NCBI GenBank assembly: GCA_964016885.1
Contig: OZ024741.1
Location: forward strand, 170,686,001-170,750,000
DNA from: Eledone cirrhosa
Lineage: Eukaryota
Direction: 5' to 3'
DNA length: 64,000 bases
The notes below the pieces were generated by a model. The model saw only the letters and a program-made list of their open reading frames with translations. It searched no databases and was not told the origin of the DNA. Shown here in pieces: positions 844-62,317 of the stretch. The translations under genes and the position numbers were made by a program. Numbering within the stretch: position 1 is the stretch's first letter; every line of letters starts with the position of its first letter.

Positions 844-1555
844 ATTATAAGAGGTTATTTGTAGATATATATAAATAGTTTTAGTGAGTATATATGTTAT
901 TTATTTAATAGATAAATAATTTAGATAGCTTTATATAAGAAGAGTTATAATATGTTGGGCGAAGATAAGTTTACATTTTCAGTATATGGCTTAAGAATAT
1001 GGAAGTAGTTCTATTTTAGTATAGAAGATGTATATTATTTTGTATATTCTATAGTGGCATCAAGATAGAAATAAATTTACGAAATTTTAATATTTTGTAA
1101 AGTTTAAATGTTACGTAGATATTAGATGTTTCTTTTCAAAGGAAAAGATAACTTTAATTTTTCTTAGTTTACAGAGTTAAGTTATAGTTATATTTATCAT
1201 TTAGTCTCAAATTTACTTTCAACTTATATTCTAATTGTAGTATATGGAAAAATTATTTTATATATGATTTTAGAGTATCATATATTTCATATGTTCTAAG
1301 ATGAAAATTTTAAAGTATATATTTTGATAACATTACTTATACCTAAGCATAAATTTGATGATATTACGTATTTGAATGTATGGATTTAAAATACCCTATA
1401 AAGCCTATTAGAAAAAAATCAAGGAACATCAAAAATACCTTCAAAAATATACTTAAAAACATTAAAAATCAAGAAAAAAAATCACAAAAAACAGCTAAGA
1501 CATATAAAATGTAACTGGGCAAGGTATAGAGGTTATATATAATATTTTCTATAGA

Positions 1556-1910
1556 TTATAGATACTTCTAAAAGTCTTAGAGGGTCAATGAAAACAAGAG
1601 TTAAATAAATCTTTCTTTTTTTTTCATAGCATTCAAATTCTCGAGAGAGCCATATTCCGGTATGCGGGCGCTTTCGAATTCGTTCTCCAAGAGATTGAAT
1701 AGTCAATATTGTCTTTTAAGGACCAAATTAAATGTGAAAGTGTTGTTGAACATTTTTTGTCCGATCTATTAAATGTGTGTTTAAAGAATTATTTAACTCT
1801 TGTTTGCATCGACAGTCTAAGACTTTTAGAAGTATCTATAATTGTTGAGTGCTTCTAATCTGTTATAAACTAAATTTGCTGAATAATCAATAAATTAAAT
1901 AACTCATTGC
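1556..1910 (+). mobile_element. Old foldback insertion with ACTC/GAGT terminal hairpin
   Basis: 1556-1610 is the diverged reverse complement of ~1785-1842; ACTC 1796-1799 / GAGT 1847-1850; ends at (TA)n. Confidence 0.55.
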
Positions 1911-4400: not shown

Positions 4401-4828
4401 CGTTTCGGTGCGCCCGGCCGATTAACTCACTCGATATGTAAATTAGGCTGCTCAGCCGTTAATATGCATAAGGAAAGTATATACTTTCAGACGTTCAATC
4501 ATCTGGCAGGAAGGTATACGGTGCTGACGATAGCTAATAAGCTTGAAACTAGTACATCGTTCCTTTGTCAGTGTTGAACAAAAGGGCAACGATGGTTGCT
4601 AAACACTGTACTGCTTAATTCGGGATGTTTGTTTACAAACAAACCGTGTATTATAATAAATGTTCGGTAAACCCATGCGTACATATATATATGTGTGTGC
4701 ATGTATGTATATATATAAATACGACTGTACGTCTGTATACATATATGTATGTACGTATACATACTTATATTTAAGTAACAGCCGTACTAAGAGAGAGAAA
4801 TGAAATTTCGTTTCATATTTTCCTTTTA
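4398..4828 (+). mobile_element. ~410-430 bp non-autonomous hammerhead-bearing retroelement (family H1)
   Basis: Homologous to 29678-30750, 56155-56685 and 19848-19973; TA-rich flanks; contains a hammerhead. Confidence 0.8.
4518..4560 (+). ncRNA. Type I minimal hammerhead ribozyme (H1)
   Basis: acggtg CTGACGA tagctaataagctt GAA ACTAGT A catcgt: 6-bp stem I, agcu/agcu stem II, palindromic stem III, GUA site. Confidence 0.9.
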
Positions 4829-13326: not shown

Positions 13327-13760
13327 TCCTTACGGGGTCGATAAAATAAAGTACCAGTAATGCACTGGGTAATTGCTGGCCTTGTGCCAAAAGTAGAAAC
13401 AATTATGATTAGGCTATTAGGAGTAATAATTATTTCTTCTTATGGCACAAAGCCACCAATTATCCCAGTGTATTACTGGTACTTTATTTTATTGATCTCG
13501 TAAGGATGAAAGGCAAAGTTAACCTCGGTGGCATATGAACTCAGATTGTAAAGGGGAGTAACTCTATGCTGCAAGCATGGCGCCAACCTTCTACCGATAC
13601 TGCCAATCCACCGCCTTTCTATTAATAATTGTTTCTACTTTAGGCACAAGGCCAGCATTCAACCAGTACATTACTGGTACTTTATTTTATCGACGCCGTA
13701 AGGATGAAAGGCAAAGTCAAATTGTTTCTACTTTTGGTACAAGGCCAGCAATTATCCAAT
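13327..13760. mobile_element. Cluster of family A SINE pieces (13327-13405 +, 13430-13617 -, 13625-13760 -)
   Basis: Core and tail matches. Confidence 0.85.
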
Positions 13761-13812
13761 GTTGTTGTTGGTGGTGGTGGTGGTGGTGGTGATGGTGTTA
13801 CTGTTGTTGTTG

Positions 13813-13844
<32 letters not shown>

Positions 13845-13892
13845 GGTGGTGGTGGTGGTGGTGGTGGTGTGATGGTGTTACTGTTGTTGTTG

Positions 13893-13924
<32 letters not shown>

Positions 13925-14010
13925 GGTGGTGGTGGTTGTGGTGGTGATGGTGTTACTGTTGTTGTTGTTGTTATTGGTGGTGGTGGTGGTGGTGATGATG
14001 GTGTTACTGC

Positions 14011-14056
<46 letters not shown>

Positions 14057-14070
14057 GGTGGTGGTGTTAC

Positions 14071-14101
<31 letters not shown>

Positions 14102-14112
14102 GATGGTGTTAC

Positions 14113-14143
<31 letters not shown>

Positions 14144-14195
14144 GGTGATGGTGTTACTTTTGTTGTTGTTGTAGGTGGTAGTGGTGGTGGTGGTG
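13760..14195. repeat. Compound (GGT)n/(GTT)n array
   Basis: Direct. Confidence 0.95.
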
Positions 14196-15750
14196 GTGAG
14201 GGTAATGGCGGAGGAGGTAAGGACGATGGCGATGGTGTTGGTGAGGGTAATGGCGGAGGAGGTAAGGATGATGACGATGGTGTTGGTGAGGGTAATGGCG
14301 GAGGAGGTAAGGATGGTGGCGATGGTGTTGGTGAGGGTAATGGCGGAGGAGGTAAGGATGGTGGCGATGGTGTTGGTGAGGGTAATACGGAGGTGGTAAG
14401 GATGGTGGCGATGGTGTTGGTGAGGGTAATGGCGGAGGAGGTAAGGATGATGGCGATGGTGTTGGTGAGGGTAATGGCGGAGGAGGTAAGGATGGTGGTG
14501 ATGGTGTTGGTGAGGGTAATGGCGGAGGAGGTAAGGATGATGGCGGTGGTGTTGGTGAGGGTAATGGCGGAGGAGGCAAGGATGACGACGATGGTGTTGG
14601 TGTGGGTAATGGCGGAGGTGGTAAGGATGATGGCGGTGGTGTTGGTGAGGGTAATGGCGGAGGAGGTAAGGATGATGGCGATGGTGTTGGTGAGGGTAAT
14701 GGCGGAGGAGGTAAGGATGAGGGCGATGGTGTTGGTGAGGGTAATGGCGGGGGAGGTAAGGACGATGGCGATGGTGTTGGTGAGGGTAATGGAGGAGGAG
14801 GTAAGGACGATGGCGATGGTGTTGGTGAGGGTAATGGCGGAGGAGGTAAGGATGATGGCGATGGTGTTGGTGAGGGTAATGGCGGATGTGGTAAGGATGA
14901 TGGCGATGGTGTTGGTGAGGGTAATGGCGGAGGAGGTAAGGACGATGGCGATGGCGTTGGTGAGGGTAATGGCGGAGGAGGTAAGGACGATGGCGATGGT
15001 GTTGGTGAGGGTAATGGCGGAGTAGGTAAGGACGATGGCGATGGTGTTGGTGAGGGTAATGGCGGAGGTGGTAAGGATGAGGGCGATGGTGTTGGTGAGG
15101 GTAATGGCGGGGGAGGTAAGGATGATGGCGATGGTGTTGGTGAGGGTAATGGAGGAGGAGGTAAGGACGATGGCGATGGTGTTGGTGAGGGTAATGGGGG
15201 AGGAGGTAAGGATGATGGCGATGGTGTTGGTGAGGGTAATGGCGGATGTGGTAAGGATGATGGCGATGGTGTTGGTGAGGGTAATGGCGGAGGAGGTAAG
15301 GACGATGGCGATGGTGTTGGTGAGGGTAATGGCGGAGGAGGTAAGGACGATGGCGTTGGTGTTGGTGAGGGTAATGGCGGAGTAGGTAAGGATGATGGCG
15401 ATGGTGTTGGTGAGGGTAATGGCGGAGGTGGTAAGGACGATGGCGATGGTGTTGGTGAGGGTAATGGCGGAGGAGGTAAGGACGATGGCGATGGCGTTGG
15501 TGAGGGTAATGGCGGAGGAGGTAAGGACGATGGCGTTGGTGTTGGTGAGGGTAATGGCGGAGTAGGTAAGGATGATGGCGATGGTGTTGGTGAGGGTAAT
15601 GGCGGAGGTGGTAAGGACGATGGCGATGGTGTTGGTGAGGGTAATGGCGGAGATGGTAAGGATGAGGGCGATGGTGTTGGTGAGGGTAATGGCGGGGGAG
15701 GTAAGGATGATGGCGGTGGTGTTGGTGAGGGTAATGGCGGAGGAGGTAAG
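14193..15750. repeat. 45-bp G-rich minisatellite (ggtgagggtaatggcggaggaggtaaggatgatggcgatggtgtt), ~34 copies
   Basis: Direct; one 2-nt deletion near 14387. Confidence 0.95.
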
Positions 15751-15914
15751 GTTGATGATATCATAGCAGAAGTAATAATTGTTGATATGAATGTGGTAGT
15801 AGTGGCGGTGGGAGGTGGGGGGGGGGGTTATAGTATAGCTGAGTATGTTGATGTTGTTGATGATGGTTATGATGGTTATGGTGATGTTCATGGTGTTGTT
15901 GTTGTTGTTGCTGA

Positions 15915-17960
15915 TGGTGGTGGTGTAGGTGGTGGTGATGTGGTGGTGTTGTTGATTGTGATGGTGGCCGTGCTGGTGGTGGTGGTGGTGATGTGGTGAT
16001 GTTGGGGATGTAGGTGGTGGTGGTGGTGGTGTTGTTGATCGTGATGGTGGCCGTGCTGGTGGTGGTGGTGGTGATGTGGTGATGTTGGGGATGCAGGTGG
16101 TGGTGGTGGTGTTGTTGATTGTAATGGTGGCGGTGCTGGTGGTGGTGGTGATGTGGTGATGTTGGGGATGCAGGTGGTGGTGGTGGTGTTGTTGATTGTG
16201 ATGGTGGCGGTGCTGGTGGTGGTGGTGATGTGGTGATGTTGGGGATGCAGGTGGTGGTGGTGTTGTTGATTGTGATGGTGGCGGTGCTGGTGGTGGTGGT
16301 GATGTGGTGATGTTGGGGATGCAGGTGGTGGCGGTGGTGGTGTTATTGATTGCGATGGTGGCGGTGCTGGTGGTGGTGGTGATGTGGTGATGTTGGCGAT
16401 GCAGGTGGTGGTGGTGGTGGTGTTGTTGATTGTGATGGTGGCGGTGCTGGTGGTGGTGGTGATGTGGTGATGTTGGGGATGCAGGTGGTGGTGGTGGTGG
16501 TGTTGTTGATTGTGATGGTAGCGGTGCTGGTGGTGGTGGTGATGTGGTGATGTTGGGGGTGCAGGTGGTGGTGGTGGTGGTGGTGGTGTTGATTGTGATG
16601 GTGGCGGTGCTGGTGGTGGTGATGTGGTGATGTTGGGGATGCAGGTGGTGGCGGTGGTGGTGGTGGTGTTGTTGATTGTGATGGTGGCGGTGCTGGTGGT
16701 GTGGTGATGTGGTGATGTTGGGGATGCAGGTGGTGGTGGTGGTGGTGGTGTTGTTGATTGTGATGGTGGCGGTGCTGTGGTGGTGGTGATGTGGTGATGT
16801 TGGGGATGCAGGTGGTGGTGGTGGTGGTGGTGTTGTTGATTGTGATGGTGGCGGTGCTGGTGGTGTGGTGATGTGGTGATGTTGGGGATGCAGGTGGTGA
16901 TGGTGGTGGTGTTGTTGATTGTGATGGTGGCGGTGCTGGTGGTGGTGGTGATGTGGTGATGTTGGGGTTGCAGGTGGTGGTGGTGGTGGTGGTGTTGTTG
17001 ATTGTGATGGTGGCGGTGCTGGTGGTGGTGGTGATGTGGTGATGTTGGGGATGCAGGTGGTGATGGTGGTGGTGTTGTTGATTGTGATGGTGGCGGTGCT
17101 GGTGGTGGTGGTGATGTGGTGATGTTGGGGATGCAGGTGGTGGTGGTGGTGGTGGTGTTGTTGATTGTGATGGTGGCGGTGCTGGTGGTGGTGGTGATGT
17201 GGTGATGTTGGGGATGCAGGTGGTGGTGGTGTTGTTGATTGTTATGGTGGCGGTGCTGGTGGTGGTGATGTGGTGAAGTTGGGGATGCAGGTGGTGGTGG
17301 TGGTGGTGTTGTTGATTGTGATGGTGGCGGTGCTGGTGGTGTGGTGATGTGGTGATGTTGGGGTTGGAGGTGGTGATGGTGGTGGTGTTGTTGACTGTGA
17401 TGGTGGCGGTGCTGGTGGTGTGGTGATGTGGTGATGTTGGGGTTGGAGGTGGTGGTGGTGGTGGTGTTGTTGATTGTGATGGTGGCGGTGCTGGTGGTGC
17501 GGTGATGTGGTGATGTTGGGGTTGGTGGTGGTGGTGGTGTTGTTGATTGTGATGGTGGCGGTGCTGGTGGTGGTGGTGATGTGGTGATGTTGGGGATGCA
17601 GGTGGTGGTGGTGGTGTTATTGATTGTGATGGTGGCGGTGCTGGTGGTGGTGATGTGGTGATGCTGGGGATGCAGGTGGTGGTGGTGGTGGTGGTGTTGT
17701 TGATTGTGATGGTGGCGGTGCTGGTGGTGTGGTGATGTGGTGATGTTGGGGATGCAGGTGGTGGCGGTGGTGGTGTTATTGATTGTGATGGTAGCGGTGC
17801 TGGTGGTGTGGTGATGTGGTGATGTTGGCGATGCAGGTGGTGGCGGTGGTGGTGTTGTTGATTGTGATGGTGGCGGTGCTGGTAGTGGTGATGTGGTGAT
17901 GTTGAGGATGCAGGTGGTGGTGGTGGTGGTGATGTGGTGATGTTGAGGATGCAGGTGGTG
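15915..17960. repeat. ~65-80 bp G-rich minisatellite with internal variable (GGT)n
   Basis: Unit gatgtggtgatgttggggatgcag(gtg)ntgttgttgattgtgatggtggcggtgct(ggt)n; most units shift the reading frame. Confidence 0.93.
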
Positions 17961-18872
17961 TTGGTGACGTTGGTGGTGGTGATGGTGGTGGTGGTGGTTT
18001 TGGTGGTGGTGGTGATGGTGGTGGTGCTGGTGGTGGTGGTGGTTGTGGTGGTGGTAATGATGGTGGTTGTGATGGCGGTGATGTTGGTAGTGATGGTGGT
18101 AGTGGTGGGGGTGGTACTGCCTATTACTATTGTTGCACTGTAACAAGGTATAAGGATATAGGCGAATAATGGTGTTGGTGAGAGTGGGAAGAAGGGCACA
18201 GGAAATTGTTGTTGAGAAAGTAGGAGTAAGAGTAGAGACGAAGAAAGAGGAAGTGAGAATATAGAGGAGGGGGAAAAGGGGAGGAGGAAGCAGAAAGAAG
18301 GATGGAGAATGTAGGAGAAAGATAGAGAAGGAAGGAAAGAGTTCGATATCGCTTTAAATATCGACTGTTGGATTTTACAGCTGTCTGTGTGTCTTTGATT
18401 TGCATGTATAGTTAATATGTGTGTTTCCGTATGTTTGTGTAAGCCTGCTGTGTGTTCATACGTGTGGGTTTATGTATGTTCTTTGAATGTGTGTGTGTGT
18501 GTGTTTGTGTTTTAGGATTTTGTGTGAATGTATTTATGTGTATTTGTGTGTATATGATTTCGTTTATACGGTTATACGTTTGTGCTGTGCATGCATCTGT
18601 GCTTGTGTCGTAAGGTTGTGTGTACGTGCGCATTTCCCTGAAACTGTATTTTTCATGTTTTGTGTGAGTATGCACATATGTGCAATTCTGTGTACAATTG
18701 TGAATGAACGCTTGAAAATGTGAGTGATTTTCCCTGAGATTATTGGAATAATTTCTTATATATATATATATGTTTAAATCTATTTACATTTGCACATGCG
18801 TGTATATATATATATATATATATATAAATGAAAGGTATAGAAAACATTGTCGTAAGAAGCCAACAGTATTCC

Positions 18873-20087: not shown

Positions 20088-21387
<1,300 letters not shown>

Positions 21388-27202: not shown

Positions 27203-28497
27203 TCTTGATCCCCTTGACCGACCCGTCTGTCGGGCGTCCATTCGGCGTCGCCGGTCACAGCACGCCGTCCATTCCTCTCTGGATCGTGCTTTCCTCATCC
27301 ATGTAGTCCCAATCGTATTCTTAAAATCGTAAGTCCACCCTCGTGGAGGCCTTCCGAGTGGTGGTTTCCGCACGCGCGGGTACCACTCGGCAACTGCGCG
27401 GGTCCACCGATTATCGGTGAACCGGGAGACGTGACCAGCCCATCTGAACTTGCTGCGCATATATTCCGTGAGGACGTCCCTCACGCCGGACTTCTGTCTG
27501 ATGACTTCGCTCCTGATGTGCTCTCTCAACGAGATTCCTAGCATTGATATCTCCATGGCTCTTTGAGCAGTTACCAGCCCCTGCTCTTCTGTATTCGTTG
27601 TAGCCCAAGTTTCACTGCCATATAACATTGTAGGTAAAACTGTTCTATTGAAGAGGTTGGCACGGGTGGTCGTGTGCAACCTCCCCTTGAGCACATCCTT
27701 TATGCCGTTGAACGCCTTCCATCCGGCCCGTATTCTCCGCCAGATCTCCCTCTCAATGTCTCGGCGCATGTTCACTTCTTGTCCCAGGTAGACGTATTCC
27801 TCCACCTTCTCTATGTCATCACCGCCAACCACCATTCGACCTGTTGGTACGTTGTCGGACCGCATGAACTTCGTTTTCATGCGGTTCATCTTGAGGCCTA
27901 CTGCAGAGCTTTTGATGTCGAGCTCCGTCAGAATGGTCTGAAGCTGATCCGTGGTTTCAGCGATGAGTACGATGTCATCAGCGAAATGGAGGTGGGTAAG
28001 TATTTCGCCGTTGATGTTGACACCGCCTTGCCTCTGATGATCTGCTTGAAACACGCGGTGAAAAGTTTAGGAGAGATCATATCTCCTTGCTTCACTCCCT
28101 TCTCGACCGGCACTCGTACGGGTGATGACAGCAGAGCTATGTCGGTGGTAATCCGGAACTCGCCTCCCTGAGCAGTTGAACGTATTGCGCCTCGATTCCT
28201 TACATTTGCAGCGAATTCAACACTGCGTTGATTTCAACGCTGTCGAAGGCCTTCTAGAAGTCTACGAACGCGACGCAAAGAGGCATCTTGTACTCTTTTG
28301 CTCGCCCAAGCAGTTGTGTCAGAGTAAATATGTGGTCCATCGTGTTGTAGTTTTTCCGGAAGCCGGCTTGCTCTCTCGGTTGGTGTTCGTCCAGATGACG
28401 TGATAACCTGTTCAGGATTATCTTCGTGAACAGCTTGTACACGTGAGACAGCAGGCATATGGGTCGGTAGTTCTTCAGATCTTCTCTATCGCCCTTC
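27200..28497 (-). mobile_element. RTE-clade LINE reverse transcriptase and 3' end (frameshifted)
   Basis: NYRPICLLS, QAGFR, VAFVDF, GVKQGDMISP, HLHFADD, YVYLG, RWAGHV, WYPR motifs; ends in (TA)n. Confidence 0.95.
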
Positions 28498-37565: not shown

Positions 37566-37570
<5 letters not shown>

Positions 37571-37950
37571 GAGAGTAAAACAAAGAATCCTTTAATACAT
37601 CAAAAGTTTTTATTAGCCGACAATGTTTCGTCCTATTAAGGACTCATCAGGGCAATCAAAACAACAAGAAGTAATATCGGCAGATACAAGCCGGAAACTC
37701 TAAAGAATATGGAGTGTGCATACACTAAAGTCTTACAAAAATATATGATAATAAAAATGAAAATAATATAAAAATAAAAATAATAAAAATATATAATAAT
37801 AAGAATAACTAAGGATGTAGATAACATTAAGAACCATATTACAAACATAGTCCAAAGCAACTAACCTAAATCTAAACAAATTTGGTTATATAGAGCAGGA
37901 ATTATATATAACACAATGCAATAAACATAATACATTATAATAATATACCT
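37566..37950 (-). mobile_element. Solo 3'-end (pLTR) copy of the 41-47 kb PLE
   Basis: Homologous to 41136-41475; flanked by (TA)n. Confidence 0.88.
37616..37653 (-). ncRNA. Minimal type I hammerhead ribozyme (PLE pLTR)
   Basis: gcc CTGATGA gtcct taat aggac GAA ACATTGT C ggc. Confidence 0.92.
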
Positions 37951-38780: not shown

Positions 38781-38792
38781 TATATATATACA

Positions 38793-40050
38793 TATCATAA
38801 ATCGTGTCTATAGAATCAATCAGATATTAAAATATATACTATTTCTTCTTCTAATCAGCAAAATCAACCATATACCTAATCAAATCTAGCAAGCTTTAAG
38901 TATACATTTTCTAACGGGGAAATCTCCGACAAATAATTGACCGCAGCCAGTTCGCGATAACTCCGTTCCATTATTTATCAAACACTTCGGCAGCATGCAG
39001 AATCCGATCAAATACATCGTCAACCGCACGTAATTAGTAGTAAAATTAAACTTAGAAGAAATGCGCACATACCGATCGGATTCTGCATGCTGCCGAAGTG
39101 TTTGATAAATAATGGGACGGAGTTATCGCGAACTAGCTGCGGTCAATTATTTGTCGGAGATTTCCCCGTTAGAAAATTTATTCTTAAAGCTTGCTAGATT
39201 TGATTAGGTATATGGTTGATTTTGCTGATTAGAAGAAGAAATAATATATATTTTAATATCTGATTGATTCTATAGACCCGATTTATGATATAATGCTTTG
39301 ATTTTTTTATTTTAATCTATTAATTCTTCATTGAGCTTAAAAGTGAACAGTTGCAACACATATATGTATCCTTGATTTAATTTAATTTAATTTTATGTAT
39401 GTGATAACCTCTATATTTAATAATCTCCCTATCGGTTGAGATTACATTTGGCGATATATGGCTGCGCTTTCTAGCAGCATGCCTACCCGCCGCAAGCAGC
39501 CAATCACACGCTTTCTCTGTGGCTGGTACACAGCTACATAGCGATCTTAGCCATTTTTGAATCTAAATTTGGCGCGGTCGGTCTGAGAAATTAAATGTCT
39601 ATTTCTGAGTTTGTCTCCTGATGATTCCCGACTCAAAGCAAGTCCAGATTATTTGGATGTCCTAAACAAGGAAGAAACCATGGTAGAGATATAATTACGG
39701 TATGTGCGCATTTCTTCTAAGTTTAATTTTGCTACTAATTACGTGCGGTTGACGATGTATTTGATCGGATTCTGCATGCTGCCGAAGTGTTTGATAAATA
39801 ATGGGACAGAGTTATCGCGAACTAGCTGCGGTCAATTATTTGTCGGAGATTTCCCCGTTAGAAAATTTATTCTTAAAGCTTGCTAGATTTGATTAGGTAT
39901 ATGGTTGATTATGCTGATTAGAAGAAGAAATAGTATATATTTTAATATCTGATTGATTCTATAGACACGATTTATGATATAATGCTCTGATTTTTTTATT
40001 TTAATTTATTAATTCTTCATTGAGCTTAAAAGTGAACAGTTGCAACACAT
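38793..40050 (+). mobile_element. Family H6: inverted arm, partial repeat and ~690-bp unit
   Basis: 38793-39074 inverted; 39074-39362 repeated at 39762-40050; GCTC/GAGC 39984-40025. Confidence 0.88.
39612..39691 (+). ncRNA. Type I hammerhead ribozyme with large loop 2 (H6)
   Basis: tgtctc CTGATGA ttcc...ggaa GAA ACCATGGT A gagata. Confidence 0.85.
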
Positions 40051-40073
40051 ATATATATATACATATATATATG

Positions 40074-40365: not shown

Positions 40366-40812
40366 GAAATGCGCATAAAAAAATACATGGAACTCTTTTA
40401 ACCATCTTTTGATCTTATATTATATATATATATATACATATATATATATTCCTTCCATATACTATACCTTATTTTTCTGTTTACCTTTTATATACATACA
40501 CACATACATATATATATATATATACATATTTTACACTGTATTCGACTGATTACATGCACATTAAAGCCACTCATTTTTCAAGTAAAGGCTAAAATAGAGA
40601 TTCCTTGTACCACGTTCTAACTGCAAAATACAAACATTTCACGGCTATTCCTCTGTATACATACTTACATGGATACATACATAAATGAATTTGTACAAGC
40701 AGTCTTAAACATACGCACACACACAATTTTACCCTTCCTTTATATATATATAATTATAAAATAAAGTAATTAAGTCAAATATTTAAAATTTGGCTTCGTT
40801 TATTGAAGATGT

Positions 40813-40867
40813 ACTGCTATATATATTTCGGTGACAGCCATCATTGGCTGTGACCTCTTCAGGCAGT
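40813..40867 (-). ncRNA. Type I hammerhead ribozyme (H5), in fragment ~40755-41000
   Basis: actgc CTGAAGA ggtcacagccaatgatggctgtcacc GAA ATATATAT A gcagt. Confidence 0.9.
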
Positions 40868-41057
40868 CCGAATTGGTGTGGTATAGACAGGTACACATGT
40901 TATTAAAGTGTTTTAATCCGTCAATACTCCGATATGTCCAGCTCCTGATTCGGTTGTTATTTCTCTGAGGAACTGGAATCATATGAATTCTAACAATTCG
41001 CAAGTTGCGTTTCGCTAAATTCTACTCGCCGAAAAGCGATTCTCGCTAAATTTATAT

Positions 41058-41138
<81 letters not shown>

Positions 41139-41183
41139 GAGAGTAAAACAAAGAAGCCTTCAATACATCAAAAGTCTTTATTA

Positions 41184-41221
41184 GCCGACAATGTTTCGTC
41201 CTGTTAAGGACTCATCAGGGC
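41184..41221 (-). ncRNA. Minimal type I hammerhead ribozyme at the PLE 3' end
   Basis: gcc CTGATGA gtcct taac aggac GAA ACATTGT C ggc; differs from the 37616 copy only in loop 2. Confidence 0.92.
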
Positions 41222-43002
41222 AATTAAAACAACAAGAAGTAATATCGGCAGATAAAAGCCGGAAGCTCCGAAGAATATGGAATGTACATACACTGAAGTA
41301 TTACAAAAATATATAATAAAAATATATGATAAAAATTACTAAGGATGTATATATAACATTACGAACCATATTACAAATATAGTCCAAAGCAAAGAAAACA
41401 CTAGAGCTAAACAAAGGTGGTTATATAGAGCAGGAATTATATATAATACAATATAATATACTATAATATACCTTTACCAACATTAAAATTACAATAAAAA
41501 TCAAAAGATACAATATGCATATGTATATATGTGCGCACACATACACACAAATACACATACAACAATACACACATCCATCTTCAACTGCACAAATTAAACC
41601 TTATTAAGAATTTGAATATAAAAATAAGCATGATAGGAATGAAAATAATAATAATAATAATACTAATACATCTATCCAATATACATGAGGTAATAATATG
41701 ATATAATTATAAGTAGCACATATAATAAATAATAAATAATACAATTATATACTATATAATACAATATAATAGAATAGATAATCATCGGTTAATTTACACA
41801 AACAATATAGATGTCACAATAATAATATAATAATGATATATTAACATTTACAATATATAATATACTAACATTTATCATAAACAATATAAATGTACTCAAG
41901 TTAACAAATCAGTTCATATTGGGTTACAGAGTAGGTGAGGAAAAATAAATTGTACAATACCTCAAACAAATGTTGATTGTACAGAAGTACAAACATCTTA
42001 CATGATATATAAAGTTTAACATATCATAATGTTACATATAATTAACGGTAAGTAATAAGGATCAATATTACAATAAAAAATACAATATAATATAATATAT
42101 TATATAAAATAAATTAATACCATATAATATATAATTACTTATAATTACAAGGTTGGTAGACAGACATGTATATGGATGAGTGAGTAAGTGCCAGACAGTA
42201 AATATAATGCACAGTAGTATTACAAATAAAATATAAAATATAAAATATAGAATAAAATAAATAAATAGAATCAACCGGAAATTAAAAAACAAAAACAAAC
42301 GTATACATTTAGGTCTCACATGCAGTTAAGTAGTTAAGTAAAATCTAAGGAAACAACCCCTGTAAATGACTCGAAAACCCTATTTGATAAATTAATATTA
42401 AAAATATTTAAACTATCCAATAAGACAGTATAATATTAGCTATAGTTTAAGTCATTAAAGTTTATAAACGTTAATATTTCGTTCCAAATGTTTACAAAAA
42501 GGAATGAAATTTTGTTATTATCATATACATAACGATATCTAAAAAACTGACTTAAGCAGAATTAAGGTAGGCTAATAGGGACAGAAATGAAGAAATGTAT
42601 GGAGGATGCAAAGGGGCATAAAATATAGTCGATATACTATATTACATAATAGAAAGAAGCGTAAAAGAGGGGGGGTTAAATATAATATAATCATAGTCAA
42701 TTTGGAGGGGTTGACAATAAGTTTATGTGCGCATGGGGGGGGGGTCCAAAGAAGAATCCGAATAAGAATAAAAATAAAAAATAAGAATAAAAAAATGAAT
42801 AGCGTAAAATATATAATCTTATATACATTCATAAGGTGTAACAGTGAAAATTTAATGTGTAAGAAGATAGATATGGTACAGTAGCCAAAAGATTATGAGA
42901 GCTAGAATGAAGAGTCATCAAAAACCAATGATAATAATGATGTTAACAATAATGTTGGCAAACAAAAAGACCTAAACTAAAAAATAAATAATGGAATATA
43001 TC

Positions 43003-44048
43003 AGCTAATGGGTACAATTTGTACTACTAGAACGTTTAGGTTTATAATAAAAGTATGAATTAGAAATAGCATGGGGGCAAGAAGAGAATATCTCAGACAT
43101 TCTATTAAGTAAAGATGCGCTAGAGAAGATTATAGAGTGTGTCTCGAGGATACAGAGATTACAAAACTTAGTATGTGTAGAAAGGTGGTTAGAGCGTGCT
43201 ACTAAACGCCAGTTAAGGCTAATGGTATATTAGCTATCTTAAGATCCCAGACATAATGTGCTAAAGAAGTAGAATTCTTAAACTTAACATGCTTGAAATT
43301 AGAGATATGAGAGTTAAACCTAGTCTTAAAAGTGTTAGATATAGAGCCTATATAAGTTCCATTAGAGGAATTAGTTATAACTTCGCAAGCATAGACAATG
43401 TTCTTAGAAAGGCAGTTACCGTTTAAAGGGCAGTTAGCACTCACTCTACAATTGCACTTCCGGGTGTTATTGGTTGACTCAAGTGGTGATGCATAACACG
43501 TAGGATTACTATTAGATAAGGACTGTTCTGGTGGTAATGTATTGCCAGATCTGTTCGGACTAGTAGTATGTAGAGAGGAGAATCCATCCCTAATTTTCCT
43601 ATTGTTAGTGCTAGCTGAATGAGAACTAATATTAGGGGTGGTAGAGAATGAAAGTTTAATAACATTTTTATTAAAAATACTATGGTATTTATGAGAAGGG
43701 GGGAAATTTTTCTCTAAGATAGAGAAAAAAGACCTAGGGATATTAGTTGATACTTACTGATTATATGGCGTTTTAAAATAAGTATTTAATCGCCTTCTAT
43801 TTTTATTCTTACCGACTGTACCATTATCAAATATCCCGCCATCGAGACTAGGGTTACTACAAGGATTAGTTAAAGCCGCATTCATAGAATCAGCCAAAAT
43901 TTCATTAAGTCTATTACAGTTTCTACCTCCAGTAGATCTGCTGCTGTCCGGAATCCCATCATAAGGATCAGGGCCAATGATAGGATCAGTAGGAGCAACA
44001 TTATCAGAATAAGATCCAGCTAAATTATCACCAATGTGTGAGCGCTCA
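43003..44048 (-). pseudogene. Inverted, frameshifted copy of the PLE linker and GIY-YIG domain
   Basis: ORF 43202-43444: CPLNGNCLSKNIVY...TYIGS...KTRFNSH. Confidence 0.9.
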
Positions 44049-46598
44049 TAATAAGAATAGGAAGGACCCCAGGAATAGAACTATTTTTAATAACTATGGC
44101 TTCAAAACTTATAAGAGCCCACCACACAATATTCTGTTAGATAGTTTTGAAAGTGACTTACTCTCTCTTGTCAAAAATATTAGGTGTAGGCCAAATAATA
44201 GACATAGAAATTATAATAATTTTGATAAGTTCCAGTCTAGACTTAAAAATATTGTTAAGGGTTTCGGTGAGAATAAATCCATTCTTGTCCCGGCGGATAA
44301 GACTAAAAATCTATACTCCATGGATTATAGTGCTTACCGCGACTTTATTTATAATGAGCTGCATAGAAACTATAAAAAAACTACACTTGAAAATTTGAAC
44401 CACATCAATAGTGATGGCCTTAGAATTGTCTCTGACCTCGGCCTCGATAAGTATACCCAGCCATATTACCCTCGAGAACCGAGATTCACTCTTAAGGATC
44501 ATAAGGTTGATTTTATTAGTAACCCCTCTGTTAGACTCATCTGTCCTTCTAAGTCTGATATAGCCATTATCAGCAAAAAAATCCTTGACCTTATTATACC
44601 AGATGCTAGAGATAAGGTTAATTTTAACCTATGCGGGAACACTAAGGAAGTTATAGATTGGTTCTCCGGGATTAATAGACTTGAATCTAATAAGTTTATC
44701 CAATTCGATATTGATGCCTACTACACATCAATTTCACCCATCCTCCTCAATAAAGCTTTAATGTTGGCCATGAGAGTGTCCAGCCTTACACGATCACAGG
44801 TAGATATTATACTAGCAGCCCGTAAAACTATTATTAAATTTGAGGACACATTTTGGACCCGTAAAAACACGCCCAACAATTTCGACGTCACAATGGGTTC
44901 GAGTGATTCGGCCCAGGTTACTGATCTTGTTGGGTTGTTCCTCCTTAATGAACTATATGCTACCTTCCCGCACCTTATAGGCGGACTATATCGTGATGAT
45001 GCATTGTTTGTAATTAACTCTAGCACCAACAATCTAGAACATAATAAGAAGAAGCTTTATAAGTTTTTTAAAAGCTATAAACCTTCGATCACGATAGATA
45101 GAAATGATAGAGCGGTTAACTTTTTAGATGTGACTTTGGACTTGGTCACTGATAGTTTTAAACCCTTCCATAAGCCTAATGAAATACTTTCTTATGTTAG
45201 TCTCAATTCTAACCACCCCAGGTCTATGATAAGCTCTATAATTAAGGGTTATCTAATAGGATTTCCACACTCTCTAAGGACGTAGGAACATTTAATGAAC
45301 ATGCGGAGTACTATAATAATGCCCTAGCAAATTCAGGTTACTCTAGTAAAATACACTATAATAATAGTAACCTTAGAAAGTCTCCGTCTACTTTTAGTAA
45401 TAATAACATAATATCACATAACATGGCCATGAATGGGAGTAGCAAACATTGTAACCGTAAAAATTATATAGGTGTATCTGAACCCACCCATAAGTTAACC
45501 CACCGAACCCGCAATAGTGAATATAATACCCCTAGGAAACAAGTTGAACCCCCTGAGCGCTCACACATTGGTGATAATTTAGCTGGATCTTATTCTGATA
45601 ATGTTGCTCCTACTGATCCTATCATTGGCCCTGATCCTTATGAGGGGATTCCGGACAGCAGCAAATCTACTGGAGGTAGAAACTGTAATAGACTTAATGA
45701 AATTTTGGCTGATTCTATGAATGCGGTTTTAACTAATCCTTGTAGTAACCCTAGTCTCGATGGTGGGATATTTGATAATGGTAGAGTCGGTAAGAATAAA
45801 AATAGAAGGCGATTAAATACTTATTTTAACCCGCTATATAATCAGGAAGTATCAACTAATATCCCTAGGTCTTTCTTCCCTATCTTAGAGAAAAATTTCC
45901 CCCCTTCTCATAAATACCATAGTATTTTTAATAAAAATGTTATTAAACTTTCATTCTCTACCACCCCTAATATTAGTTCTCATTTAGCTAGCACTAACAA
46001 TTGGAAAATTAGGGATGGATTCTCCTCTCTACATACTACTAGTCCGAACAGATCTGACAATACATTACCACCAGAACAGTCCTTATCTAATAGTAATCCT
46101 ACGTGTAATGCATCACCACTTGAGTCAACCAATAACACCCGGAAGTGCAATTGTAGAGTGAGTGCTAACTGCCCTTTAAACGGTAACTGCCTTTCTAAGA
46201 ACATTGTCTATGCTTGCGAAGTTATAACTAATTCCTCTAATGGAACTTATATAGGCTCTATATCTAACACTTTTAAGACTAGGTTTAACTCTTATATCTC
46301 TAATTTCAAGCATGTTAAGTTTAAGAATTCTACTTCTTTAGCACATTATGTCTGGGATCTTAAGATAGCTAATATACCATATAGCCTTAACTGGCGTTTA
46401 GTAGCACGCTCTAACCACCTTTCTACACATACTAAGTTTTGTAATCTCTGTATCCTCGAGACACACTCTATAATCTTCTCTAGCGCATCTTTACTTAATA
46501 GAAAGTCTGAGATATTCTCTTCTTGCCCCCATGCTATTTCTAATACATACTTTTATTATAAACCTAAACGTTCTAGTAGTACAAATTGTACCCATTAG
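44049..46598 (+). pseudogene. PLE reverse transcriptase plus GIY-YIG endonuclease, 5'-truncated, one frameshift at ~45247
   Basis: FIQFDIDAYYTSI, FDVTMGSSDSAQ, LYRDD, VNFLDV, SNHP; after the frameshift LSNRISTLS...ALANSGY runs in frame into YFNP...CNCR-CPLNGNC-IVY-YIG-R-CNLC-E-LLNRKSE-CPH. Confidence 0.93.
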
Positions 46599-47407
46599 CT
46601 GATATATTCCATTATTTATTTTTTAGTTTAGGTCTTTTTGTTTGCCAACATTATTGTTAACATCATTATTATCATTGGTTTTTGATGACTCTTCATTCTA
46701 GCTCTCATAATCTTTTGGCTACTGTACCATATCTATCTTCTTACGCATTAAATTTTCACTGTTACACCTTATGAATGTATATAAGATTATATATTTTACG
46801 CTATTCATTTTTTTATTCTTATTTTTATTTTTATTCTTATTCGGATTCTTCTTTGGACCCCCCCCCCCCCCCCCTTCAACCCCCCGTTCAACCCCCCCCC
46901 CTCAACCCCCCTCCCCCACATGCGCACATAAACTTATTGTCAACCCCTCCAAATTGACTATGATTATATTATATTTAACCCGCCCCTCTTTTACGCTCCT
47001 TTCTATTATGTAATATTGTATATCGACTATATTTTATGCCCCTTTGCATCCTCCATACATTTCTTCATTTCTGTCCCTATTAGCCTACCTTAATTCTGCT
47101 TAAGTCAGTTCTTTGGATATCGTTATGTATATGATAATAAAAAAATTTCATTCCTTTTTGTAAACATTTGGAACGAAATATTAACGTTTATAAACTTTAA
47201 TGACTTAAACTATAGTTAATATTATACTGTCTTATTGGATAGTTTAAATATGTTTAATATTAACTTATCAAATAGGGTTTTCGAGTCATTTACAGGGGTT
47301 GTGTACTCAATACTTAAGGTAGTAGAGTGGGTAATAGGAACCAGTAAGACCCCGACAGCTGAGCTCAAGCCGTTTCGACGGCTAATCCCTGTATTATTGA
47401 TAACGCA

Positions 47408-47525
47408 CTGAGTTCAAATCCCGCCGAGGTTAACTTTGCCTTTCATCCTTACGGGGTCGATAAAATAAAGTACCAGTAATGTACTGGGTAATTGCTGGCC
47501 TTGTGCCTAAAGTAGAAACAATTAT
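47408..47525 (+). mobile_element. 5'-truncated family A SINE with 17-bp TSD, inserted in an H7 fragment
   Basis: attattgataacgcact on both sides. Confidence 0.9.
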
Positions 47526-47570
47526 TGATAACGCACTATATATCTCTCTCTGGTGTGTTACCTTTTCAAC

Positions 47571-47612
<42 letters not shown>

Positions 47613-47620
<8 letters not shown>

Positions 47621-48645
47621 GTTGAAAAGGTAACACACCAGAGAGAGAGATATAGTGCGTTATCAATAATACAGGGAAAAAACCACCAGCGTATGGAATC
47701 TATAACCTATGAAAGGCAGACTATAGACACGATAATTAAAAATATAAATTAAAGCGTAAATAAATACCTCTATAACAATATAACACACGTACAAATCCAA
47801 AGATATGTTTCACCAAAAATTTGTTGAAAGAAATGGTCTTGTCTCGGTTTATCAGCGTGTGTAAGGCTATACATTTCAGACAACACTAAGATAATTTTAA
47901 AATTGACTGTCCAGCTACACGTGGGAGAGAGAAGTCACAGCGTGTTTAAGGGCAATGAACCAGTGGCTTCTGAGGGACGAACTGCTAGAAAGGGCAGCCC
48001 AAAGCCACTCAGAGATGTGTGCTCAACTAAAGAGCTCAGGATCTCTTCTCCTTTGAGCACACTATTTACAGGGAATAGCGAGGGCTTATGCCTCCGTTAA
48101 TTTATCGTGATATTTCGCTCCTAATAACAGTCTTTCCTATCTCTGTTTGGTTGAGCACACTTCTCTGAGTGGCTTTGGGCTGCTCTTTCTAGCAGTTCGT
48201 CCCTCAGAGGCCACTGGTTCACTGCCCTTAAACACGCTGTGACTTCTCTCTCCCACGTGTAGCTGGACAGTCAATTTTAAAATTCTCTTAGTGTTCTCTG
48301 AAATGTATAGCCTTACACACGCTGATGAACCGAGACTAGACCATTTCTTTCAACAAATTTTTGGTGAAACATATCTTTGGATTTGTACGTGTGTTATATT
48401 GTTATAGAGGTATTTATTTACGCTTTAATTTATATTTTTAATTATCGTGTCTATAGTCTGCCTTTCATAGGTTATAGATTCCATACGCTGGTGGTTTTTT
48501 CCCTGTATTATTGATAACGCACTATATATCTCTCTCTGGTGTGTTACCTTTTCAATATATTGTATTTTAAAGAGCTCAGGATCTCTTCTCCTTTGAGCAC
48601 ACTATTTACAGGGAATAGCGAGGGCCTATGCCTCCGTTAATTTAT

Positions 48646-48650
<5 letters not shown>
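47613..48650 (+). mobile_element. Family H7: inverted arm, tail repeat and ~540-bp unit
   Basis: 47613-48026 is inverted relative to ~48150-48565; 48027-48110 repeated at 48568-48650; (TA)n on both sides. Confidence 0.9.
48315..48394 (+). ncRNA. Type I hammerhead ribozyme (H7); mirror copy 47783-47862 has CTGATAA
   Basis: acacacg CTGATGA accgaga...ttttggt GAA ACA tatctttggatt TGT A cgtgtgt. Confidence 0.88.
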
Positions 48651-48692
<42 letters not shown>

Positions 48693-49132: not shown

Positions 49133-49163
<31 letters not shown>

Positions 49164-49165
<2 letters not shown>

Positions 49166-49399
49166 CTTTCACCGTATTTTTGACTAAAGGAATTTTAGCC
49201 TGATAATGGGGTTTAGAACCCTCGGATAAATGGAAAAAGATGAGTATTGACGTACATGGGACGTCAATACTCATCTTTTTCCATTTATCTGAGGGTTCTA
49301 AACCCCATTATCAGGCTAAAATTCCTTTAGTCAAAAATACGGTGTAAGCTATATATTTTCTAATTACAAACCTGCTCACTGTTTCAAAACATACTTACT

Positions 49400-54644: not shown

Positions 54645-56121
54645 CACCCGCTCCGTAGATGAATTTGAACTTCGAAACTTAAATATGTTTCGCAACGATG
54701 GTACATGAATTGAAAAATAAAGTGAATTGAAATGGAATTGAAATAAAAAGTGAAATATCCAAATCTTCTGGGCTTATCAACAAGAATCCAGTAAAATTAG
54801 TATATTTCGCCATCAAAAATCGTGCAGGTCTGACTACCCGTGTGTGTAGCCAGGCCAAACTAGCCGTCCCGCATTCCCGGTGCTAGAAATAACAGCCGTT
54901 TATGCGGGATTAAAGATCAGCTCTACAGTTAAGGAGCAATATACTATATTATATTTTGTGATTAAACTCTCAGTCGTTTACAATAAATCAGCTCCAGGAA
55001 AGGGGCATTTCCGAGCAGTTAAATACATTAATATATATGATAAACACAAAACGTGTTTGCATTGTAAGAGACAAAGTTAGCTACCAATGAAATAAACTAA
55101 TTAAAGTGAATACAATTTGTCTGTCTCGATATAAGTCAATAAAGACAAGCTTATATTGGCAAAGGCCGTGATTCCTGGACAAATCCAAATTTCAAAATCC
55201 AAACCCGCTCCGTAGATGAATTTGAACTTGTACCATCGTTGTACTCATGTACCATCGTTGCGAAACATATTTAAGTTTCGAAGTTCAAAATAATCTACGG
55301 AGCGGGTTTGGATTTTGAAATTTGGATTTGTCCAGGAATCACGGCTTTGCCAATATAAGCTTGTCTTTATTGACTTATATCGAGACAGACAAATTGTATT
55401 CACTTTAATTAGTTTATTTCATTGGTAGCTAACTTTGTCTCTTACAATGCAAACACGTTTTGTGTTTATCATATATATTAATGTATTTTACTGCTCGGAA
55501 ATGCCCCTTTCTTGGAGCTGTTTTATTATAAACGACTGAGAGTTTAATCACAAAATATAATATAGTATATTGCTCCTTAACTGTAGAGCGGATCTTTAAT
55601 CCCGCATAAACGGCTGTTATTTCTAGCACCGGGAATGCGGGACGGCTAGTTTGGCCTGGCTACACACACGTGTAGTCAGACCTGCACAATTTTTGATGGT
55701 GAAATATACTAATTTTACTGGATTCCTGTTGATAAGCACAGAAGATTTGATAATTTCACTTTTTATTTCAATTCCATTTCGATTCTCTTTATTTTTCAAT
55801 TCATGTACCATCGTTGCGAAATATATTTAAGTTTCTAAGTTCAAATTCATCTACGGAGCGGGTTTGGATTTTGAAATTTGGATTTGTCCAGGAATCACGG
55901 CCTTTGCCAATATAAGCTTGTCTTTATTGACTTATATCGAGACAGACAAATTGTATTCACTTTAATTAGTTTATTTCAATGATAGCTAACTTTGTCTCTT
56001 ACAATGCAAATACGTTTTGTGTTTATCATATATATTAATGTATTTAACTGCTCGGAAATGCCCCTTTCTTGGAGCTGATTTATTGAAAACGACTGAGAGT
56101 TTAAACTCAAAATATAATATA

Positions 56122-56125
<4 letters not shown>
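54645..56125. mobile_element. ~555-bp unit: one copy plus ~1.6 inverted tandem copies
   Basis: 54645-55229 is inverted against 55246-56125; GCTC/GAGC 55572-55589; no convincing hammerhead found. Confidence 0.85.
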
Positions 56126-56157
<32 letters not shown>

Positions 56158-56394: not shown

Positions 56395-56439
56395 AACGGT
56401 GCTGATGATAGCTAACAAGCTTGAAACTAGTACATCGTT
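56395..56439 (+). ncRNA. Minimal hammerhead (H1) within foldback 56155-56685
   Basis: aacggtg CTGATGA tagctaacaagctt GAA ACTAGT A catcgtt. Confidence 0.92.
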
Positions 56440-60059: not shown

Positions 60060-60655
60060 CAACTAATAGGTATGCATAGGTATGCATCTGTATATATATA
60101 TGTTGGTAGATATACAATTCTTTATAATTATCTCCAAATTATTTTGTTGAGCAAAAATTTGCCAAAACTGCTACTATAGTTCATAGTAATAGTTCGGCTA
60201 CTGTCTTCTTAACACTCCACTTCTCACTGATTAACCTCGATGTCACGTGACTGATTCTTTTGAATTTGCCACCGACCAAATAGGCAGTGATTTTTTTTCA
60301 ATGTCTTGGAATTTAGTCCTCGCTTGCTTTTTTCCATCCACTGAATTATTTTTGTATAAGTTCCCTGTGTCCACGCATCGCCTGGGAACTTAGCTGAGAA
60401 TTGACTTCCTGATGACGAAAGGTATTCTCCATGTTGTTCCATTCGGAAACCATGTTTATTCCATTTCAGAAACTAATTAGTTGGACTGAAATTTTAGTAA
60501 GTAAGTTAATTTTTATAATTTTCTTATTTTACGTCTTTCATATTATTGTTCTGAATCCCCTTGCATTGAACCACAAAGTTACTAAGACAAAACCTATATA
60601 TTTGCTAGCATAGGTATGCATCTGTATATATATGTTGGTAGATATACTAATTCTT
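60060..60655 (+). mobile_element. Family H3 unit (~530 bp) with partial terminal repeat and hammerhead at 60406-60485
   Basis: CTGATGA c-gaaagg...ccatttc-a GAA ACTAATTAGT T gga; homologous to 19166-19824 but circularly permuted. Confidence 0.82.
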
Positions 60656-60954: not shown

Positions 60955-61978
60955 TTTGAGTATATGTTTGTTGTATACCAACACCTCAGTATGCACCTGG
61001 AGCACTCGACGAAGTGCGCAGGTTGGTTTGGTTACTCTGGAGTAATGTAAAATAAATTTAAATAAAAAGTCAAATGTTTAAAATTTAGCTTCGTTTATTA
61101 CTGTTATATATATTTCAGTGACAGCCATCTTTGGCTGTGACATCTTCAGGCAGTTTGAATTAGTGTGGTATAGACAAGTAGATATGTTGTTGAGGTGTAT
61201 AATTTTGTCAATACTCTCATATGCCCAGTTCCTGGTTGGGTTGTTATTTCACTGAGGAACTGGAATAATATGAATTCAAACAAACGAATTTCAGTGTCAA
61301 AGGGCGTCTTCTCCTCTCATTGGTCAGTTATTAGAACATTCCTCATTCTAAGTGTTGTTATTGTTGGAGTTAGCTTAAACAATTGATAAAGTGGTAGAAC
61401 GGACAAGGTGTTAAAGGAACAAAATAACAAAAAAGTGTCAAACTTCCCATTGATCAGTTATGAGAGCATTCCTGAGTCAGACGTCTATAGAATTCTTTCT
61501 GGGGTGAGGCTCCCTGTAGCCTCACCCCAGAAAGAATTCTATAGACGTCTGACTGAGGAATGCTCTCATAACTGACTAATGGGAAGTTTGACAATTTTTT
61601 TGTTATTTTGTTCCTTTAACACCTTGTCCCTTCTACCACTTTATCGATTTTTTAAGCTAACTCCAACAATAACAACACTTAGAATGAGGAATGTTCTAAT
61701 AACTGACCAATGAGAGGAGAAGAGGCCCTTTGACACTGAAATTCGTTTGTTTGAATTTATATATTATTCCAGTTCCTCAGTGAAATAACAACCCAACCAG
61801 GAACTGGGCATATGAGAGTATTGACAAAATTATACACCTCAACAACATATGTACTTGTCTATACCACACTAATTCAAACTGCCTGAAGAGGTGACAGCCA
61901 AAGATGGCTGTCACTGAAATATATATAACAGTAATAAACGAAGCTAAATTTAAAACATTTGACTTTTTATTTAACTTT
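60955..61978. mobile_element. ~920-bp palindrome (family H5) with a hammerhead in each arm (61100-61154 -, 61878-61932 +)
   Basis: Centre gaggct ccctgt agcctc at ~61515; actgc CTGAAGA 11-bp stem II GAA ATATATAT A acagt; terminal hairpin 61004-61043. Confidence 0.92.
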
Positions 61979-62317
61979 ATATATATATATGTATATATAC
62001 TTATATGTATGTACATATATATATATATGTGTGTGTATATTCATATATACATATATACATATATATCTGTTTGTGTGTGTGTATAGACACATATGTGTGC
62101 GTGTGTATGTATATAATTGTATGCTGTAATATCAATGTAATATCAATAACTGAAGATGAGTGTGAGAATCCAATGCAATGTCGAATGATCTATATGGTTT
62201 ATATAGTAATCTCATTACTTAGAGTTACACTATATGATTAAGTAATACTGTTGTTAAATACATCACTAATGATGATCAGTTTGCCACATTATATGTACTG
62301 AGCACTTTCTTGTCTAT

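Follow-up and report, generated by a model that had tools for sequence, protein, structure and literature searches.

A decayed locus in Eledone cirrhosa best read as two head-to-head, 5'-truncated copies of a long Hydra-clade Penelope-like element

A 64,000 nt stretch of the Eledone cirrhosa genome (contig OZ024741.1, positions 170,686,001 to 170,750,000; hereafter the window, with coordinates counted from its first letter) contains, at 41136–47302, a locus that is best explained as a decayed insertion consisting of two 5'-truncated, head-to-head copies of an undescribed, long Penelope-like element (PLE) of the Hydra clade. We hold this explanation as a whole with considerable confidence, and the route by which the two copies are thought to have arisen, double priming on a (TA)n run, with only modest confidence. 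Judging from the sequence, what appears to be new is a divergent and unusually long Hydra-clade family with a linker of 163 amino acids (aa).

The inverted copy (41136–44048, minus strand) comprises part of the linker, a broken endonuclease and the whole 3' untranslated region (UTR), including its true terminus, which abuts an (AT)37 run (41062–41135) presumed to be the target. The direct copy (44049–47302, plus strand) begins a few codons past the position of the RWK motif in relatives, is cut within its 3' UTR, and breaks off at 47302, where it meets remnants of other repeats and an element resembling a short interspersed element (SINE). Inverted arms at 42353–44048 (minus strand) and 45554–47302 align over 1750 columns with 27 mismatches and four gap openings, these being three 1 nt indels and a 52 nt C-rich expansion of the right arm (46867–46918), which lies in the proximal 3' UTR (46599–47302, plus strand). 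A 1505 nt spacer separates the arms, and an extra 1.2 kb, the distal 3' UTR (41136–42352, minus strand, 24% GC), is found on the left side only; its middle may hold later insertions. The two copies are truncated at the equivalents of 45554 and 44049. The 5' end of the inverted copy is a palindromic 10-mer, TGAGCGCTCA (44039–44048), which is native at the start of the right arm (45554–45563) and is present exactly twice in the window, the second occurrence being a product of the arm duplication. PLEs have terminal repeats formed by tandem or inverted 5'-truncated copies; here there is an inverted one at the 5' end and no direct pseudo-long terminal repeat (pLTR). A preliminary description of this DNA, made without database searches, had reported 1.7 kb inverted arms flanking the reverse transcriptase (RT) and a junction at the 10-mer, and alignment of the arms confirmed both; its tail-out orientation also stands, but its 6 kb palindrome does not, as the palindromic parts are 1.7 kb arms held apart by the spacer. 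It made no mention of the missing RT N-terminus, of the stop and frameshift in the left arm, or of a hammerhead ribozyme near the left terminus.

Two overlapping frames encode the protein in the direct copy, 43993–45285 for the RT and 45246–46598 for the thumb, linker and endonuclease. A shift of one base separates them, located at a short G run in the thumb region (45246–45250, plus strand), which bears out the single frameshift previously placed between the RT and GIY-YIG frames. The RT and endonuclease are colinear with those of relatives, where they form a single continuous open reading frame (ORF), and a programmed frameshift was rejected for this reason. The RT (44050–45246, plus strand) lacks a start codon and displays DKT, FDVTMG, GLYRDD, NFLD and SNHP. 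Its structural model (pLDDT 92) retrieved telomerases at all of Foldseek ranks 1–9 (best E 2.3e-10), and comparison with Candida TERT gave a VIA Z of 17.3 (rmsd 3.6, 278 aligned). Pfam gave no RT match for this protein, and RVT_1 for just one of nine relatives, below cut-off; a PDB sequence search returned nothing at E ≤ 1. The linker, measured from SGY to YFNP (45333–45821, plus strand), is expanded to 163 aa, compared with a median of 28 and no more than 77 among 88 relatives, and contains the native 10-mer. Downstream are a CxCX5C motif and a GIY-YIG endonuclease (46128–46598, plus strand) with IVY...YIG, the R, E and N residues, CxxC and CxH, and without CCHH. The C-terminal model (pLDDT 91) ranked GIY-YIG domains first to third, namely the I-TevI catalytic domain (Z 8.7, rmsd 2.4, 89 aligned) followed by T4 EndoII and UvrC; Foldseek gave no match for it at E ≤ 0.001, and Pfam matched GIY-YIG in the left arm only, below cut-off (E 0.0078). 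At 46293 the right arm encodes Tyr in place of the His found in the left arm and in relatives, a difference that had been noticed before, as had the Cys pattern, all parts of which (CNCRVSANC, CNLC and CPH) are present.

Assignment to the Hydra clade follows the marks given by Craig et al. 2021 (PMC8557442): RWK, DKT, no CCHH, CxCX5C, CxxC/CxH, a canonical hammerhead ribozyme and (TA)n insertion. Every one of these that can be tested here was found, and the element shows none of the patterns of other clades. DKT occurs at RT residue 83, with no DKG; CNCRVSANC matches the linker motif CxCX5C; and CNLCILE, LNRK and CPH provide CxxC and CxH around the conserved E and N. The interval from IVY to YIG is free of Cys beyond the residue after IVYA and CX2-5CxxC is absent, so there is no CCHH, and a pattern scan of the RT and endonuclease found none of DKG, [RK]Y[VI]DD or CX2-5CxxC. 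The left terminus lies on (AT)37 and that of a small related copy on (TA)30, in keeping with the (TA)n association suggested earlier; the right terminus is lost. RWK, found as RW[KR] in 86 of 105 full-length relatives, falls in the region removed by the 5' truncation. In an RT tree of 134 rows (133 of them relatives, unnamed or uninformatively named), the element belongs to a nine-member subclade (support 0.998), one member of which is an Argonauta protein; of ten relatives looked up, a single one was named, and its label, 'GATA zinc finger', is misleading. Protein searches produced 36, 381 and 4940 matches, of which the best 36, 120 and 150, respectively, were examined. Among these listed matches the best whole-RT identity to any protein was 43–46%, which means that the family is missing from the collections searched, and none of these matches was close enough to reveal the native junction sequence. 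The retained coding sequence (2550 nt) and 3' UTR (~1869 nt) give a length of at least 4.4 kb, the distal part of this ~1.9 kb UTR being seen in one copy only.

A type I hammerhead ribozyme is found on the minus strand at 41180–41224, about 45 nt from the element terminus, and has a CUGAUGA core, a stem II of 4–5 bp, GAAA and a short palindromic stem III. It matched Rfam RF00163 with 30.3 bits (E 0.0018), below the gathering score of 34, and was also found by an independent motif scan. Free-energy folding did not yield the active form, and cleavage at this site is putative. A short copy of the 3' end of the same family (37568–37932, minus strand) lies within TA repeats and shows 80% identity over 371 columns; the terminal ~330–390 nt of the distal 3' UTR is common to both. 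Since this short copy, which adjoins (TA)30, has the same terminus as the 41136 end and the same hammerhead (37612–37656), the 3' end of the element can be fixed. The motif scan counted eight hammerhead cores in the window against 0.23 expected from shuffles, and the 37568–37932 copy is the only small element there with a 3' end in common with this PLE. A role for this PLE as the source of the other hammerhead families was ruled out, as they have no 3' sequence in common with it, and matches to Rfam microRNAs were rejected as repeat hairpins scoring below their gathering thresholds. The Hydra-clade-like PLE of the preliminary description is supported by the motifs of the published scheme (PMC8557442), by both folds and by the ribozyme.

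Its portrayal as near-intact is not upheld. The copy is neither near-intact nor autonomous, and can neither make a full protein nor move by itself. Approximately 40–45 N-terminal residues are gone, including the start codon and RWK, a motif that lies upstream of the truncation point in all 87 scored full-length relatives (median position 37), and no plus frame of 43701–44100 contains it. The endonuclease pattern K.R...H fits 102 of 105 full-length relatives, and the right copy has Tyr in place of its His. The RT departs from consensus at nine columns on which at least 90% of relatives agree, and four of the nine residues are found in none of 132–133 relatives, although the deviations could be partly family-specific. 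The left copy is damaged separately by a stop (43754–43756) and by a frameshift, a 1 nt deletion near 43221, and the direct copy is without the hammerhead-bearing 3' end. With no start or N-terminus, a frameshift, a cut 3' end and a damaged left copy, there is therefore no autonomous copy at this locus. The locus had also been put forward as the best candidate for an autonomous driver of the small elements, which its lost coding capacity does not support; since it cannot make a full protein, it would be the family, and not this locus, that drove the one related short element nearby.

Eighteen of the differences between the arms fall within the ORF, two synonymous and 16 non-synonymous, which fits the neutral expectation of 22–28% synonymous changes (p 0.18–0.40). 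As these coding differences are what would be expected without selection, the two arms were the same when inserted, and decay has since affected each of them. Their divergence is 1.6%, and an octopus calibration quoted in PMC13282606 (a Jukes-Cantor distance of 0.09 for 25 million years) suggests an insertion about 2 million years old, if the host is taken as an octopus.

Head-to-head layouts are already known for PLEs. According to PMC8557442, an adjacent inverted, 5'-truncated copy is frequent and is listed for a Hydra-clade family, Penelope-13_HM; the latter, a Repbase family, is 3045 nt long and keeps both hammerheads, unlike the present locus with its direct copy shorn of the 3' end. The element resembles the Hydra clade, including Hydra-1_Obim of Octopus bimaculoides, in having a GIY-YIG domain without CCHH, DKT, FDVxMG, GLYRDD, CxCX5C, CxxC, CxH, a canonical 3' hammerhead and a (TA)n target. 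It differs from the Hydra families described there (1.1–3.0 kb) in its length of at least 4.4 kb, its 163-aa linker and its ~1.9 kb 3' UTR, and from Hydra-1_Obim in sequence and hammerhead, as judged by eye. A mechanistic model is offered by PAc, a Poseidon-clade element of Anolis (PMC11167929), in which an RT and a GIY-YIG endonuclease cleave and extend both strands of AT-rich DNA and start inside the RNA, but PAc is from another clade and has a CCHH-type endonuclease and a tandem pLTR layout. Cervera and de la Pena 2014 (PMC4209133) describe hammerhead pairs 100–700 bp apart on opposite strands. The small elements of the window resemble the non-autonomous hammerhead elements or non-LTR (long terminal repeat) retrozymes outlined there, with their short hammerhead-bearing 3' ends; unlike these, the element at 41136–47302 retains RT and endonuclease sequence, and only one small element is of the same family. 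That short hammerhead elements are in general linked to PLEs is supported by a retrozyme preprint (bioRxiv 10.64898/2026.07.22.740005).

How the inverted copies formed can be weighed against the other inverted pairs of the window. A self-comparison gave 16 rows, and excluding this element and two SINE–SINE rows, which were left out as independent insertions, there remained nine other inverted loci. In eight of these, a TA run lies no more than 3 nt from one outer end, to be read against a baseline of 12.6% for random positions within 25 nt of such a run and with the caution that run masking favours such ends; hammerheads show the tail-out orientation for two of the nine. In two small elements the inverted arm abuts (TA)n and the direct copy extends 69–90 nt further before reaching its own (TA)n, a difference between the outer ends that would be expected of separate priming events.

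We lean, without strong conviction, towards double priming on (TA)n followed by the joining of two early-ended cDNAs. An active copy elsewhere would have supplied protein and RNA, and the endonuclease would have nicked both strands of a (TA)n run; nicking and priming on either strand are suggested because (TA)n looks alike on both. Each nick would then have primed reverse transcription from the element 3' end inward, with the two cDNAs ending early at different points and being joined head-to-head with little or no homology. The arms, identical at insertion, would since have drifted by 1.6%, and the right 3' end would have been lost later. According to Frangieh et al. 2024 (PMC11167929), a purified Poseidon-clade PLE protein cleaves and extends both strands and prefers AT-rich DNA, reverse transcription starts at two internal sites, and the protein is predicted to dimerise.

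Several observations weigh against the interpretation proposed here. Both-strand priming was shown by that study only in vitro and for another clade; the right end of the element is not on (TA)n; and the junction at 44048/44049 is known from the assembly alone. The arm starts exactly on a 10 bp palindrome, which double priming does not predict. Regarding the clade, RWK is not visible in the truncated copy, the tree holds no named Hydra or outgroup sequence, so that placement rests on motifs, and the element is far longer than the 27 Hydra families listed in PMC8557442 (1080–3045 nt), which calls Hydra elements 'generally short', a size that is descriptive and not diagnostic.

The coincidence with the palindrome is the chief argument for a single priming event, in which the right cDNA would have stopped near 44049, folded back at the 10-mer region and extended itself into the left arm, with the palindrome serving as a pause or landing site. 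This is a possible but clearly less probable route. By position count, the chance of an arm starting exactly on a perfect 10 bp palindrome is about 0.3%, given that the right copy has ten of these in 3254 nt, although the figure is post hoc. Fold-back would also explain arms that were identical at insertion, and small elements centred near 20840, 49257 and 61515 are near-perfect hairpins with very short loops. Furthermore, the His codon at the junction fits relatives of the RW[KR]A[FY]H type, so that microhomology of 2–3 nt is possible; by protein context, the native sequence before 44049 could overlap the 10-mer by 2–3 nt. However, simple fold-back centred on the 10-mer is rejected, as it would leave no spacer where there is one of 1505 nt, and, with the left copy 1.2 kb longer than the present right copy, a later deletion must be assumed. 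In the six further pairs that were looked at, the arm never begins on a palindrome of more than 2 nt (three of the six are hairpin-centred, with an ill-defined arm start), and the two junctions with native context visible have 0–1 nt in common. The 10-mer is evidently not required, because these two join with microhomology of 0–1 nt, and a special role for it is unproven. A literature search found nothing on palindromic words at PLE inversion junctions, with most subscription papers, including older Penelope structure papers, outside its reach. A related and rather speculative idea, to which we give still less weight, is that the element represents a distinct long Hydra lineage (~4.6 kb, ~130 aa of extra linker, 1.9 kb 3' UTR) for which the 10-mer is a preferred stop or switch site; if true, the inverted pLTRs of PLEs would be sequence-guided.

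Inversion after insertion, by host repair or replication, or the independent insertion of two adjacent copies is unlikely. The right end does lie within a pile of broken repeats (47303–47570), so the region has been rearranged, but the layout is typical of PLE insertions, the end of the left copy on (TA)n is precisely the terminus of the family, and the 64 kb contain nine more local inverted pairs; had the copies inserted independently, they would be likely to show synonymous differences, which the arms do not. Chimeric long reads can produce palindromes, and the frameshift and C-rich expansion both lie at homopolymer runs in a structure known from assembly alone, but an assembly or read-chimera artefact is very improbable in view of 27 substitutions between the arms, informative changes on both sides, the 1.5 kb spacer, and 1.2 kb of the left copy that is absent on the right. 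Hardly credible at all is a functional autonomous element with translation starting upstream and a frameshift that is either recoded or an error of sequencing, since, even with a stop-free RT core, both frames open and the frameshift at a short G run, the inverted arm lies directly upstream of 44049 without RWK in its plus frames (43701–44100), Tyr replaces the conserved His, four RT residues are absent from relatives, and the hammerhead-bearing 3' end is missing.

How PLEs form inverted terminal copies and target microsatellites is described as an open question in PMC8557442. The present locus does not settle the question; taken by itself, a lone decayed copy like this is unremarkable transposon debris, but it contributes a divergent, unusually long Hydra family and an instance of the inverted layout that can be dated, a layout which, going by the window, is routine in this genome. 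If the idea of a sequence-guided long lineage is true, the genome, with about ten head-to-head doublets in 64 kb, would offer thousands of junctions at which double priming and fold-back could be set against each other.

Several smaller elements of the window have comparable arrangements. The hammerhead element at 47612–48653 (core 48322–48368, plus strand) has the canonical PLE layout, with an inverted 423 nt arm on (TA)n, a 108 nt spacer, the direct copy, an 86 nt repeat of the spacer start and the next (TA)n; a third piece (47521–47570) lies tail-to-tail across a TA run. At 38792–40058, between TA runs, an inverted arm is followed by a partial direct copy (39074–39369, equivalent to 39763–40058) and a full copy, and the join creates an 8 bp palindrome, CCGATCGG, with 1 nt of native overlap. 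Very short central loops separate the arms of three near-perfect palindromes, of 930 nt (61052–61980), 330 nt (20674–21007) and 200 nt (49158–49356), each of which has one end on (TA)n. Both arms of the longest contain a hammerhead with a long stem, and a solo copy related to it lies at 40741–40996. A PLE-like layout is also seen at 54646–56127, where inverted (519 nt) and direct (327 nt) copies end on (TA)n. Hammerhead cores of other families occur at 4524–4547, 56402–56425, 28034–28062 and 60409–60448. A degraded fragment of a second Hydra-type endonuclease (1555–1887, minus strand; tblastn E 1e-5) has a 60 nt inverted repeat and lies near a TA run. The SINE-like repeat next to the main locus (47408–47526), which we take to resemble octopus SINEs, a likeness that together with the Argonauta relative points to a cephalopod host, is abundant, recurring at about 12 other places, and self-BLAST revealed a 4.3 kb tandem low-complexity array at 13759–18116.

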